A stretch of 59,103 bases of DNA from Spirulina sp. (GTDB taxonomy: Bacteria; Cyanobacteriota; Cyanobacteriia; Phormidesmidales; Phormidesmidaceae): positions 1 through 59,103 of the forward strand of contig JBIPSI010000033.1 of the NCBI GenBank assembly GCA_044070495.1, given 5' to 3'. This document shows, piece by piece, positions 1 to 3,000 of the stretch. Every line of letters starts with the position of its first letter. Position 1 is the first letter of the stretch. A program made the position numbers.

Positions 1-3000
1 CCGCGAACGCCGCTTAGCCAGCGTCGTCGGGCTAACGCGTTCGTCGGCTCCAACGAAGAGTTGGTGTGCCTGGTAAGTGGACTTAGTGTTCCCAACCAGT
101 AACATTTCTACCAGGCAGAACAACTCTTTATTAGAGGGAAATTTTCCGTCTAATACCCTTATACGGGATCTTAGGTGGAAATCTGTCCGCCTAAATACCC
201 CTAGAGGGATCTTAGGTGGAAAAATTTCAGCCTAAATGCCGAATATGGGATCTTAGGTGGAAAGTTTCAGTATAAACACCCGACGCCCTGGGAGCCTGGT
301 AACTTAAGATTTCCTTAGAAATAGTACGGGCTTACCTATGGATGCATCGACTCCTCCACCCAAACGCCTGCTTGACCAAGTGCGGGATGCCATTCGGCTC
401 AAGCACTACTCTTACCGCACAGAACAGACCTACGTGCAATGGATTCGGCGGTATATCCTGTTTCACAACAAGCGCCACCCAAATCAAATGGGGGTGCCGG
501 AGATAGAGGCGTTTCTGACCCATCTGGCGGTGCAGGAGCATGTCGCGGCCTCTACGCAGAACCAAGCCCTTAGCGCGTTGTTATTTTTGTATCGAGAAGT
601 TCTGTTTCTGCCCTTGGATGCTCGGATTGATGCGGTGCGGGCCAAGCCATCGCGGAAACTGCCAACGGTTTTGACCAAGGATGAGGTGCGCTCGGTGATT
701 GTGCATATGACCGGGGTTCATCGGCTCATTGTTCAAACGCTCTATGGCAGTGGGCTGCGGCTGCGAGAGGCGATGCAGCTACGGGTGAAGGATTTGGATT
801 TTCCTCAGCATCAAATTGTGGTGCGGGATGCCAAGGGCCACGACAGCCGTGTCACCATGCTTCCGGTTAGTTTGGTGGAGCCTTTACAGGAACACCTTCA
901 GGGAGTGCAGCGGCTCCATCGGCAAGATTTGGAACAGGGCTATGGGGCAACGGTTTTACCCTTTGCCTTAGCCCGGAAGTACCCCAATGCAAACCGCCAA
1001 TGGCACTGGCAGTTTGTGTTTCCGGCTTCGACGCGCTGCCAAGATCCGCGCAGTGGGGCGGTGGTTCGTTATCACTTGCATGAGAGCGGATTGCAAAAGG
1101 CCGTGAAGCAAGCGGTGCGCTGTGCAGGAATTCAAAAGCGAGTGGGTTGTCACACCTTCCGCCATAGCTTTGCCACCCATCTGCTGCAAAACGGCTACGA
1201 CATTCGCACGGTGCAGGAATTGCTGGGCCATAAGGACGTGAAAACCACGATGATTTACACCCATGTGCTGAATCGGGGTGGACGAGGAGTTAGAAGTCCG
1301 CTGGATTGAGCCGAGGCAGGCAGATCGGTGAGCAATCGCAGGCTACTTCTCCACCAGTTCGCGGAACCAGTTGTCGCTCCAGAGGTCGTCGAAGGCGGGT
1401 TCGGTGCGAGCTTCTTCTTTATAGTCAGGGTCGAGACGAACGGCCTGTTGGAGGCATTCCAGGGTCATGTCGGATTCCCGCTGGAGGGCGTAGCAGAGGG
1501 CTTTGTTGTAGTGGGCCTTGGCGTAGTCCGGGTCGAGGGCGATAGCTTTATCGAAACTCTTGATCGCCTCGTCATCGCGCCCTAATTTGACCAGGGCCAA
1601 GCCGCGATTATCCCAGGCTTTAGGTAATTCGGCATTAAAGCGAGTGGCTTTATCGAAGGAGGAAAGGGCATCTTCGTAGCGTTCTAATTCCAGCAGAGAC
1701 AGACCGCGATTGAGCCAAGCAATGGCATCATTGGCCTGGATTTCGACGGCTCTATCAAAGGATTGGAAGGCTTCTTCGTGTCGCTGCAAAATGCCGTAGG
1801 AAACCCCTCGATTCACCCAGGCTTCGTGGTATTCGGGGTTGATTTCTAGGGCTTTATCGAAGGCCGTAATCGCATCTTCCCGCCGCTTTAGACGACTCAA
1901 CACCATGCCTCGATTCAGCCATACTTTGGGGTCTTCGGGGGTGATGTCGGCTAGTTTTTCAAACACCTCTAAGGCATCTTCGGGGCGGCGCAGTTCCCGC
2001 AATAACAAGCCTTTTTGATAGAGAGCTAGGTGATGGCGGGGGCTGATGGTGAGCAGGCGATCTAGGGAGGTAACGGCGGCTTCGAGCTGTTCCAAGGCTT
2101 GCTGGGCCTTGGCGCGATTTAGCCAGGTATTGACGTTGTTGGGCTGAATTTCTAGGGCTTTGTCGTACTCACCGAGGGCGAGGTCGTAGTCTTCGGCCTC
2201 TAGGTATCTATCGCCTGCCTGGATGTATTCTTCGGCGGTGAGGAACAGTTCGGGGCGGTTGAGTTCTAGGCGGGTGAGCTTGTCGGTGACGGTCTCAAAT
2301 TGCTGGCGGGTTTCGCTCATGAACACATCCGAGATGTACTCTGGCGTGACTTCCGCGAGGCGATCCAAAATGTCGGACTTTTGGCGCATCGCCTCGGCCT
2401 GGATGGCCTCTAGGCGCACCTTGTAGCTTTGCTGGAGCAGGGCCAAATCCCCCAGAGCCACCTCACGACCTGCTTCCACATCGGCTTGCAGTTGGGTGAG
2501 GCGGTCGCCCATTTCCGCCATTAGCGCTTCGAGCCGTAGTCGCACCTGATCCTGGCGTTCGGCGGTGGCGGATTCCAGGTTGGCGAGGTCTTCGCTGAGG
2601 CGGCGGTCGAAGGTGTCGATTTTATCCAGCACCCGGTCGCGCTTGGTGAAGATCATCTCCCGTGCCTGGGTGAGCTGGTCGGTAAAGGCGGCTTCCATGA
2701 CCCGCAGGCCGTCGAGGGACTGCATTTGCTGTTCGCCCACCTGCTCTTGCAGGACGCGCACCTGTTGACTGAAGGCCGTCGCCGTCGCCTCCAAATCGCT
2801 AAGAATCGTGCTTTTCTGAATTTCCGACTCCGTGGCCATTTGGGCAAGCTGGGCCTGGAGGCGTTGGGCCATGTCCTGAAATTCGTCGAGGGTGCCCCGC
2901 TGGCGGCTGTCTACCTCGGTGCGGGTGGTGGCAAAGCGGTCGAGGGCATCGTCGGCGGCGCGGCGCAGGTCAAACAGGAGGGCTTCCTGACGCTGTTCGA

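Follow-up and report, generated by a model that had tools for sequence, protein, structure and literature searches.

The integron integrase gene at the start of the window

The window, i.e., the whole stretch of 59,103 nucleotides that was analysed (contig C33 of the source genome G000), begins with a gene-less cassette, module A (positions 1-123, reverse strand), which is followed by an attI site (124 to about 300, reverse strand) and by the gene of an integron integrase, intI (g03861, 338-1309, forward strand). Near its other end lies an orphan attI site without intI (56907-57098, forward strand), followed by its first cassette (57099-59100, forward strand), which is closed by a canonical attC site (59020-59103, forward strand).

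The intI gene encodes a protein of 323 amino acids and was found to be intact, as the genome-wide survey's note had stated. The product scored 465.9 bits with the model TIGR02249 (cut-off 265), Phage_integrase and SAM_4 domains were detected, and residues 12-322 could be aligned to the solved Vibrio IntI 2a3v (E 5e-93) through the IntI-specific extra stretch. It is a tyrosine recombinase with the additional stretch that is typical for integron integrases. The score with the class 1-type model NF011946 was 350.7 bits, which is under the cut-off of 435 of that model.

This is the single full-length intI of the assembly. A tblastn search revealed remains of further copies, i.e., residues 1-91 and 303-323 in C60, residues 13-61 at each end of C28, and residues 1-61 in C23, and the first 10-180 bases of intI were often retained beside orphan attI copies. 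No transposase was noticed in those flanks of the attI copies that were read, which were not searched systematically for such genes. The survey of the genus was repeated with a cut-off of E<=1e-5, which is different from the E<=1e-30 of the earlier note, and an IntI match of some kind was present in 48 of 52 other genomes. Many of these matches were short N-terminal pieces or contained in-frame stops.

An attI site composed of four inverted-box units

The attI site consists of four in-phase units of 40-41 bp, which were defined by Tandem Repeats Finder, the register of the boxes and a cross-genome alignment. Its inner limit at about position 300 is approximate, and the conserved leader continues to about position 320. 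Each unit is a pair of inverted boxes (TTAGGC..GAAA / TTTCCACCTAA). Tandem Repeats Finder reported a period of 41 with 3.3 copies (137-268), and in-register boxes were found at 253-263, 212-222, 171-181, and 131-141, with spacings of 41, 41, and 40, verifying the four tandem repeats of about 41 bp that had been described in front of intI. The simple site (118-141, reverse strand) is composed of the last of these boxes as L box (TTTCCCTCTAA, 141-131), a spacer of 6 bases (TAAAGA, 130-125) and the R box (GTTGTTC, 124-118), with the crossover between 124 and 123.

The position of the crossover was derived from the end of homology between copies. Fifteen copies from 10 genomes were aligned, and in all 15 the homology ended exactly at ...TCTAAT-N5-G|TT (the G is replaced by A in one). 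The bases past the crossover differed among all 15 copies, yet they fit GTTRRRY or nearly so. The same breakpoint was found in nine further attI copies of the closed genome G036, which belongs to the same genus (Nodosilinea), and metagenome contigs from four studies diverged at places 115-128. The arrangement at the start of the window is thus that of an integron, with an attI adjoining intI and the cassette junction at the G|TT of the simple site.

Of 36 genomes of the genus that were sampled, 24 contained the attI. Tandem units of 40-41 bp with a GTTRRRY after the last unit were also found at 17 of 56 other intI loci, on the upstream side of the gene, and in none of the downstream (0/52) or gene-body (0/56) controls. 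This layout was constant across lineages, while the sequence of the boxes varied. Judged from these sequence comparisons, the true attI of IntI extends from 124 to about 300. The attI of a large cyanobacterial integron clade could thus be defined by comparison alone, including an exact crossover and unusual tandem inverted boxes.

Several additional analyses were performed with this region. A scan for consensus sigma-70 promoters in window 1-700 yielded 0 sites. The first attI unit contains a conserved TATACT, for which a reading as cassette promoter has no support. A comparison of the conservation of box and spacer columns in 22 copies did not discriminate between them, because the copies are too closely related. 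In four metagenomes the summed contig depth over the repeats exceeded that over the intI body by 10-35x, a value that is not a copy number.

Dispersed attI copies and the cassettes at their outer side

A BLAST search with window 1-400 against the source genome recovered each place at which this platform had been reported to recur: C60:1-402 (95% identity), C17:122071-122351, C53:18974-19247, C43:3992-4323, C4:183571-183767, C33:56907-57100, and C25:1-124, as well as 28 bp at both ends of C28. In addition, a weak match was detected at C23:35246-35346. The two platforms of the window are called C33a (at its start) and C33b (at 56907).

The orphan attI of the window, C33b, is 92% identical to window 122-315 and has its crossover at 57098/57099. 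The tblastn search gave no IntI match near it. Its inner neighbour is a gene of 1074 amino acids; at nine other loci of the genus with orthologues of this gene neither a platform nor an attC was found within about 1.5 kb. The simple site is intact in the copies of C53, C4, and C33b, and the copy of C43 has lost one 41-bp unit and its crossover reads GTG. The inner flanks of the orphans in G000 shared nothing, only short repeats that occur genome-wide were found in the flanks of C53, C43, and C28.

The attC sites were searched with a covariance model that was built from sites of this same genome and might overlook those that diverge. The underlying alignment of 11 sites had a consensus fold of 16 pairs, eight of them with compensatory changes, and unpaired columns inside the stem. 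The sites are imperfect palindromes with R''(RYYYAAC) and R'(GTTRRRY) boxes and bulged bases, and structure is conserved over sequence, as in integron attC sites. At E<1e-5 the model identified 17 attC sites in the genome. Canonical attC sites on the cassette strand were found at C17 (three), C4, C25, and C33b (one each), and thus adjoin four of the six platform copies with an assembled outer side. Therefore, the earlier statement that no canonical attC site accompanies the cargo genes has to be withdrawn. The sole attC at C43 is the weak one of the gene-less cassette (see below), and the model found none in the 752 assembled bases of C53.

Open reading frames and attC sites on the cassette strand, all reading away from attI, were present in C17, C4, C25, C33b, C23, and C39. 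The arrays contain 1-4 attC sites or cassettes, and their G+C content is 0.39-0.47 versus 0.567 for the genome, in agreement with the low-GC cargo that had been noted. The first cassette of C33b contains a gene (57217-59025) for a candidate defence protein of 602 amino acids (PADLOC PDC-S39, 893 bits; Pfam DUF7380 and DUF4209; G+C 0.433 versus 0.567). The attC that closes it reached 78.7 bits (E 2e-16) and is located at the contig end. The last 141 bases of C33 overlap with the starts of both C23 and C39, and the first difference between C23 and C39 follows right after the GTTA of this attC. The cargo as a whole consists mainly of toxin-antitoxin pairs and candidate anti-phage genes. According to recent reports chromosomal integrons store defence systems (10.1101/2024.07.02.601686), and the predicted cargo fits such a role.

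A gene-less cassette at several attI sites

Module A begins with TTGTTC at position 123, is 136 bp long in full and runs about 13 bases past the contig start. It contains a weak atypical attC (1-66, reverse strand), which is cut by the contig end and has ATT, not GTT, as R'. With the filters of the attC model switched off, the complete copies of module A yielded 25.3 bits (C17:122052-122136, E 2e-4), 22.7 bits (C25:60-142), and 21.4 bits (C43:4258-4339). The fold of window 1-145 (reverse strand) had a z of -4.4.

The palindrome-rich module of about 135 bp had been regarded as a part of the platform. This view could not be upheld, as module A was found at only five of the eight places in G000 and in only three of 52 other genomes of the genus; it is a separate cassette. 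Module A was identical in 124 of 124 positions among C33a, C60, and C17, in contrast to the adjoining attI, which was 94.7%, 80.1%, and 80.8% alike. The step in identity falls at the crossover, and C17 lacks intI. C33 and C60 share their first 124 bases with the end of C25 as an assembly overlap. The 100% identity of module A between C33a and C60 may in part stem from a single graph node; the C17 copy is independent and internal. The complete identity on attI sites that are only 80-95% alike, one of them without intI, argues for a recent insertion of module A in trans.

Platforms in other genomes of the genus

The closed genome G036 contains one intact cognate intI. At least one attC was present on the cassette side of 10 of 10 platform copies, and all 20 non-echo attC matches (E<0.05) had the predicted side and strand. 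In the roughly 2.3 kb of inner flank that were searched per locus no attC was found. This pattern, together with the exact G|TT breakpoint and the compensatory changes in the attC sites, bears out the central claim of the survey's note that one intact IntI is accompanied by dispersed attI-like platforms facing cassettes. Four further genomes (G019, G027, G021, and G018) had 3-9 platform matches and intI only in the form of short N-terminal pieces. Orphan attI copies thus persist like fossils without any cognate integrase, and because some genomes keep orphans after the loss of every cognate intI, part of the orphan set is decaying.

Two types of units with common inner ends were observed. Y-type units consist of attI, the first ~105 bases of intI and an 85-base sequence Y, followed by unique flanks. 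They account for seven of 20 loci that were fetched, and Y was found in 12 of 52 genomes of the genus with 27 matches, many of them right beside platform matches. At one Y-type locus (G021) a canonical attC in cassette orientation was present on the inner side. X-type units are represented by five copies in G036, which have 0.5-1.7 kb of non-coding inner flank in common. The X element had no match in G000, contained no Rfam family and no open reading frame of note. tRNA genes are located near two of the X loci. Furthermore, G005 contains a block of intI and attI that is 95% identical to window 122-1307, and the homology stops at both edges of the block. The positions of the platforms were not conserved between species.

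One integrase and many attI sites

The usual picture of an integron is that one integrase serves one attI and one array, and that only the cassettes nearest to attI are expressed. In the present case the system is probably a distributed integron, in which one IntI is accompanied by many attI copies that head short cassette arrays. Cassettes would enter at the G|TT of the simple site, which is formed by the last L-type box, the 6-base spacer and the GTTRRRY box. About seven more attI copies, including the one at the far end of the window, have no working intI, and most of them head 1-4 cassettes closed by canonical attC sites. We infer that the one IntI would bind the boxes and act in trans on the orphan attI sites, where it would insert and excise cassettes. 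The step in identity at the crossover, the fork of contigs after GTTA and the varied metagenome junctions indirectly suggest IntI-mediated recombination. As each short array adjoins its own attI leader, more cassettes may sit near a promoter than in one long array. Provided that the orphan sites are active, gene capture would be organised in a different way, with many cassettes in first position at once, and some of the unexplained attC clusters that lack an integrase would be given a concrete origin.

It is unlikely that the genome is instead an integron graveyard, with platforms that are remnants of separately acquired or duplicated integrons, a decayed intI and inert orphan attI sites. The remains of intI are indeed varied, with internal deletions in C60 and C23 and N-terminal pieces at C28, C17, C53, and C43; in-frame stops and intI fragments abound across the genus, four genomes with platforms lack a cognate intI, the copy of C43 is degraded, and integrase loss has been proposed as one origin of CALIN (Cury et al., 2016; PMC4889954). 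However, the step in identity at module A points to an insertion after the divergence of the attI copies, including the one in C17 without intI, and the simple sites of C53, C4, and C33b are intact. Moreover, the Y-type and X-type units share breakpoint and inner sequence at different places. Because these features are common across places and genomes, the orphan units would have multiplied after truncation and not have decayed independently. How they multiplied could be explained if the attI unit itself were mobile, either as an attI-ended "cassette" that uses secondary sites of IntI or as the end of an unrecognised non-autonomous element. This explanation is possible, though not strongly favoured. 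It concerns the spread of the copies and is compatible with a distributed integron. The discrete units with fixed inner ends, the differing positions between species, the sharply bounded block of G005 and the inner attC at the Y-type locus of G021 would be in line with it, and in class 1 integrons cassettes that end with a piece of attI are recombined by IntI1 (PMC12901181). Yet neither transposase nor terminal inverted repeats nor target-site duplications, as would be typical for a transposon or MITE, were seen at the aligned platform edges in a search that was not exhaustive, and the inner flanks of the orphans in G000 have nothing in common. Y does not behave as an attC, as the model had 0 matches over seven Y regions and the fold of Y, with z values of 0.46 and -0.75, was no better than those of shuffled sequences and did not form a stable hairpin. 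An orphan unit as attC-bounded "super-cassette" was also rejected, as an attC was absent from the inner edge of every orphan in G000 and from the roughly 2.3 kb of inner flank at the loci of G036, and was present at only one of seven Y-type loci.

A further alternative concerns the 40-41-bp units only, which might be operators of a transcription factor for divergent intI and cassette promoters, and not accessory IntI-binding sites. Each unit is a palindrome of 11+11 bases with a short centre, as is typical for dimeric regulators, and the units, which are located between intI and the cassettes, are kept in orphans, where only cassette expression remains controllable. Nevertheless, this function is quite improbable: the repeated boxes form a series whose fourth member, in register, is the L box of the simple site, this L box changes together with the repeated box between lineages, and the boxes resemble the GTTRRRY / RYYYAAC core. 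In addition, attI1 has been described with extra direct repeats that are bound by IntI1 (PMC8946536, PMC3146285).

A joint reading, which is rather doubtful in its entirety, would combine the distributed integron with self-multiplying attI modules, a box scaffold and CALIN as satellites in Nodosilinea and related filamentous cyanobacteria. One integrase would serve a dozen attI stations round the chromosome, each with a few cassettes beside its own leader. The stations themselves would multiply as discrete modules of attI, the first bases of intI and a fixed inner end, and the integrase might move them via secondary sites. A new kind of scaffold for the recombination complex would be formed by the four in-phase inverted-box units, and many integrase-less attC clusters across bacteria could likewise belong, as attI-headed satellites, to a distant integrase. 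Among the papers found with the literature searches of this analysis, none dealt with multiple attI sites per genome, with attI-headed attC clusters or with integrons of Nodosilinea.

Comparison with known systems

The chromosomal integrons of the IntegronFinder surveys (Cury et al., 2016, PMC4889954; Neron et al., 2022, PMC9024848) have the same IntI with the integron-specific stretch, an attI upstream of and divergent from intI with entry at G|TT, attC sites that are imperfect palindromes with R''/R' boxes and bulges, and a cargo of toxin-antitoxin and candidate defence genes. In contrast to them, about eight attI sites (at least 10 in the closed G036) were found here per one intact cognate intI, the arrays have only 1-4 cassettes, and their positions are not conserved between species. 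A sedentary chromosomal integron is recognised by a long array, with more than 19 attC sites in Cury et al. (2016), or by the same place in all genomes of a species. The short arrays, together with the missing platform at the nine other loci of the neighbour gene, set the system apart from this type.

The orphan arrays would score as CALIN or as single attC sites in the survey of Cury et al. (2016), in which half of all CALIN were in genomes with IntI elsewhere (PMC4889954). For example, the array of C17 with three canonical attC sites and no IntI match on its contig is a CALIN (at least two attC, no nearby integrase). A full attI, a feature that the definition of CALIN ignores, is present in it as well. 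Here, a complete attI is located at the head of the array, often with the first 10-180 bases of intI. In that survey attI sites were matched only for the known classes 1-3 with an exact pattern, and attI-headed CALIN would thus have been invisible.

Like attI1, the attI described here combines further core-like boxes upstream with a simple site, in which two core boxes are inverted and the R box contains the crossover (PMC8946536, PMC3146285). However, it has four tandem 40-41-bp inverted-box units in helical phase where attI1 has a single DR1 and DR2, and is thus not of the attI1 type. As far as these articles describe it, such repeats are not present in attIA of V. cholerae and are absent from most environmental attI sites.

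Module A resembles the gene-less cassettes of Vibrio superintegrons (10.1101/2023.11.21.568050) in that it is devoid of an open reading frame and bounded by the attI crossover and an attC. It differs from them by its length of only 136 bp, the ATT in R' and its presence at three to four attI sites of one genome. Lastly, the cassettes ended by pieces of attI (PMC12901181) exemplify that attI sequence can travel in cassette-like units, which is a possible route for the spread of the platforms. Those are resistance cassettes with truncated attI in mobile class 1 and 2 integrons, whereas here whole attI sites head chromosomal arrays.

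The integrase gene and its platform copies

The open reading frame at window positions 338-1309 (forward strand, 323 aa) matched the integron integrase model TIGR02249 with 465.9 bits (cut-off 265), contained both expected Pfam domains, and could be aligned over residues 12-322, across the integron integrase-specific stretch, with the integron integrase of Vibrio cholerae whose structure has been solved (2a3v). The intact intI gene reported in the genome-wide survey's note was verified. It is the only full-length intI that tblastn revealed in the 74-contig assembly, which is 97% complete. 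Pieces were found on contigs C60 (residues 1-91 with a frameshift, fused to 303-323), C23 (residues 1-61) and C28. An internal deletion that joins window 620 to 1249 was present in one metagenome contig, near the deletion of C60 (about 612 to 1248) and that of C23. The ends of C28 (73.8 kb; 1-440 and 73360-73801) are inverted copies of each other, and each carries IntI residues 13-61 reading inward and then about 290 further bases (96% identity). This suggests that C28 is a large segment between inverted orphan integron heads, which is possibly invertible.

All places that had been listed as copies of a dispersed platform were recovered at 88-100% identity by a BLAST search of window 1-400 against the genome. 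The 337 bases in front of intI had been regarded as one conserved platform; in contrast, the alignment split them into two separate things, module A (window 1-123 plus about 13 bases past the contig start) and module B (window 124 to about 320). Module B is present beside intI (C33a), on C60, C17, C53, C43 and C4, and at window 56907-57098 (C33b), where it is an orphan, i.e., a platform without a working intI. The C43 copy is damaged and its module B is one unit short. Read towards the cassettes, on the reverse strand at the start of the window, module B has four units in register. In each unit, a box resembling TTAGGCNGAAA is separated by two to four bases from a second box, TTTCCACCTAA. These second boxes are located at window 253-263, 212-222, 171-181 and 131-141, with spacings of 41, 41 and 40. 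The fourth one is TTTCCCTCTAA, followed by TAAAGA and GTTGTTC, which together are a simple site of two inverted core boxes. In 15/15 aligned copies from 10 genomes of the genus Nodosilinea, the homology stops directly after the G (A in one copy) of the last GTT, and the sequences at the crossover all differ (GTTAGCC, GTTAGCT, GTTAGAT, GTTGTTC, GTTCGAC, GTTATAC, GTTGGAC, GTTATCC, GTTAGAC, ATTAGAC). The same end of homology was found in nine more copies in a closed genome, G036, and metagenome contigs from four public studies diverged into unrelated sequence at window 115-128. Such a shared end is what an attI crossover would look like after the entry of different cassettes, and module B is very probably an attI site whose copies head cassette arrays.

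The box of the first unit (window 265-275, reverse strand, and the equivalent place in other copies) reads TTTATACTGAAAC, the other units having TTTAGGC. Its TATACT is kept in 13 of the 15 aligned copies and resembles a -10 element directed at the cassettes; it was not called in a strict promoter scan.

attC sites and a gene-less cassette

Short repeats common to the cassette-side flanks proved to be imperfect palindromes, 85 nt long, with the pattern RYYYAAC ... GCGGACGG ... CTGCCGCCGC ... GTTRRRY. The consensus fold of 11 attC sites has 16 pairs, eight with compensatory changes, and unpaired columns within the stem. A covariance model built from 11 sites of this genome yielded 17 genomic matches at E<1e-5, and canonical attC sites lie beside four of the six copies with an assembled cassette side, where the survey's crude scan had found none. 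Three sites lie on the outer side of the C17 platform, one on that of the C4 platform and one on C25, and a further one, at the extreme window end (59020-59103), closes the cassette behind C33b. Arrays were found at the starts of C23 (three sites) and C39 (four), and single sites on C4, C6, C8 and C27. The cassette side of C43 has only the weak attC of module A, and none was detected in the 752 assembled bases at C53. Another site outward of the C4 platform is apparently split (C4:179903-180107): model positions 3-46 match 180064-180107 and positions 34-86 match 179903-179955. The halves are located where the C4 array ends outward, with about 108 bases between them.

Module A is present only at C33a, C60, C17, C43 and C25. 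It begins with TTGTTC directly past the attI crossover and ends with ...GTCA; in the three copies with an assembled far side, the next bases are TTATGC, TTAGCT or TTGGGC. Because of this start and this defined end, it is bounded like a cassette, of 136 bp. With filters off, the attC model matched its hairpin over the full length and on the cassette strand in all three cases (C17:122052-122136, 25.3 bits, E 2e-4 in 38 kb; C25:60-142, 22.7 bits; C43:4258-4339, 21.4 bits). Its own R' reads ATT, not GTT. Module A is a gene-less cassette, and it is nearly private to this genome, with matches in 3 of 52 other genomes of the genus. The attI spacer and R box AAGAGTTG (window 125-141, reverse strand) are complementary to the R'' region CAACTCTT of the module A attC (window 60-80, reverse strand), which adds a further long stem when window 1-145 is folded (z -4.4).

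Among C33a, C60 and C17, module A is identical at 124/124 positions, while the adjoining 190 bases of attI are 94.7%, 80.1% and 80.8% alike, and the step in identity sits at the crossover. Because of this step, one cassette appears to have entered attI copies that had already diverged, and C17 is without intI. The step therefore argues that the cassette was inserted in trans, and recently. An assembly overlap comprises the first 124 bases of C33 and of C60, plus the end of C25, so that module A of C33a and C60 is linked to its own attI only via exact overlapping words; that of C17 lies inside its contig and is independent. A comparable signature was found at the end of C33, which is an attC: C23 and C39 share their first 141 bases with this contig end and first differ right after GTTA, which would reflect either polymorphism in the sample or the presence of this cassette twice, in different arrays. 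On balance, it seems slightly the better assumption that the orphan attI copies are served in trans at present.

The low G+C content of the cargo was confirmed, with 0.39-0.47 in the arrays versus 0.567 in the genome. The cargo comprises PIN_3 with a ribbon-helix-helix partner, UPF0175 with DUF3368 (PDC-S70), MazE with PIN, a PemK toxin, PDC-S39 (893 bits, the 602-aa gene of the window), PDC-S26 (PD-(D/E)XK), PDC-S49 (KAP NTPase), PDC-S03 (Uma2), a deaminase, a caspase-GUN4 protein and several orphan genes without a family. Ordinary large genes are the neighbors of both loci of the window, encoding a 992-aa coiled-coil/TPR protein (1343-4321, reverse strand, convergent with intI) and a 1074-aa secreted-looking protein (53242-56466, reverse strand, beside C33b); the G+C content between them is 0.579.

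Distribution in the genus and beyond

Among the genomes sampled, module B occurs in 24 of 36 from the genus and in 6 of 24 from other families, often in multiple copies (14 matches in G036, nine in G019, eight each in G005 and G028). In G036, the closed 3.79 Mb chromosome of a Nodosilinea MAG, 11 loci were fetched and searched for attC sites with filters off. All 20 non-echo matches at E<0.05 were on the cassette side and strand of a platform, no attC was detected in the approximately 2.3 kb of inner flank (the intI side) searched at each locus, and 10/10 full or nearly full platforms had at least one. A single intact cognate intI (92%) was found in this genome; it also carries a partial copy containing a stop and two further classes of integrase (68% and 59%). 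One of the 68% class is intact, the 59% class occurs in two copies that share one internal deletion, and there are fragments too; each of these loci (C1:2265190-2266140, 1202891-1203592, 2950483-2951175 and 39959-41465) has attC sites at a distance of 3-10 kb, on the side where they are expected.

For 56 other intI loci, 330 or more upstream bases were available, and in 17 of them this sequence contains 2.1-3.9 tandem units of 40-41 bp. The 17 loci belong to Pseudanabaena, Leptolyngbya, Acaryochloridaceae, Vasconcelosia, other Nodosilinea and one Chloroflexota; the controls yielded 0/52 downstream and 0/56 in the gene body. These units are inverted box pairs as well, and GTTRRRY comes after the last one, separated from it by a short A/T-rich spacer. 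The boxes vary in sequence by lineage, e.g., TTATCCAGAAAGTTTCTGGATAA, and the L box beside the crossover varies along with them. Because of this co-variation, IntI itself is favored as the protein that would bind the units.

Discussion

The orphan copies could be simple vertical relics. However, no platform was found within about 1.5 kb of orthologues of the gene beside C33b at nine loci of other genomes, and in G005 a block of intI and attI is 95% identical to window 122-1307, with homology ending at both block edges. Independent decay of intI would agree with the damaged copy on C43 and with the several platforms kept in G019, G027, G021 and G018 with only N-terminal scraps of the gene. Yet five orphans of G036 share a non-coding, internally repetitive inner flank of 0.5-1.7 kb that joins intI after about the fourth codon. 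In addition, 7 of 20 fetched loci with N-terminal fragments, from six genomes, share a breakpoint near window 441-443 and an 85-base sequence, Y, beyond which their flanks differ, and Y is present 27 times in 12 of 52 genomes, in many cases directly adjoining platform matches. The common inner flanks, the shared breakpoint with Y and the multiplicity of Y indicate that orphan units multiplied after the truncation.

The flank shared in G036 (X) contains a 21/42/84-bp tandem array with a unit like TGTGATCGATATGCGCAGCGG (L125:1157-1432), but no ORF of note and no Rfam match. Y did not match the attC model in the seven Y regions searched, and it does not fold into a stable hairpin. A third family, at one locus each of G027 and G019 (L147 and L149), shares a sequence after a breakpoint near window 400-432 that is unlike X and Y. 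The orphan inner flanks of the Spirulina genome have nothing in common; those of C53, C43 and C28 contain short dispersed repeats of about 130-190 bp with dozens of genomic copies, unrelated to integron parts. No transposase or terminal repeat was seen, though no systematic search of the flanks for transposases was made.

Taken together, the survey's observation was confirmed and its interpretation supported, with two corrections, namely that module A is a separate cassette and that attC sites are present. This is an integron system of a known kind in an unreported arrangement, with many attI sites, one integrase and very short arrays. A literature search found no account of multiple attI copies per genome, of attI-headed attC clusters or of Nodosilinea integrons. 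In the text available of Cury et al. 2016 (PMC4889954), attC clusters without integrase are described, 95% of which are not near a recognizable intI pseudogene and half of which are in genomes that encode IntI elsewhere; attI was matched there by exact pattern, for classes 1-3 only. The accessible part of the IntegronFinder 2.0 article (PMC9024848) mentions single Klebsiella genomes with as many as four complete integrons. The attI architecture is also unreported. According to the portions at hand of two articles (PMC8946536, PMC3146285), attIA of V. cholerae and most environmental attI sites are without direct repeats, and the extra IntI1 sites of attI1 are two single direct repeats, in contrast to the four tandem inverted-box units described here.
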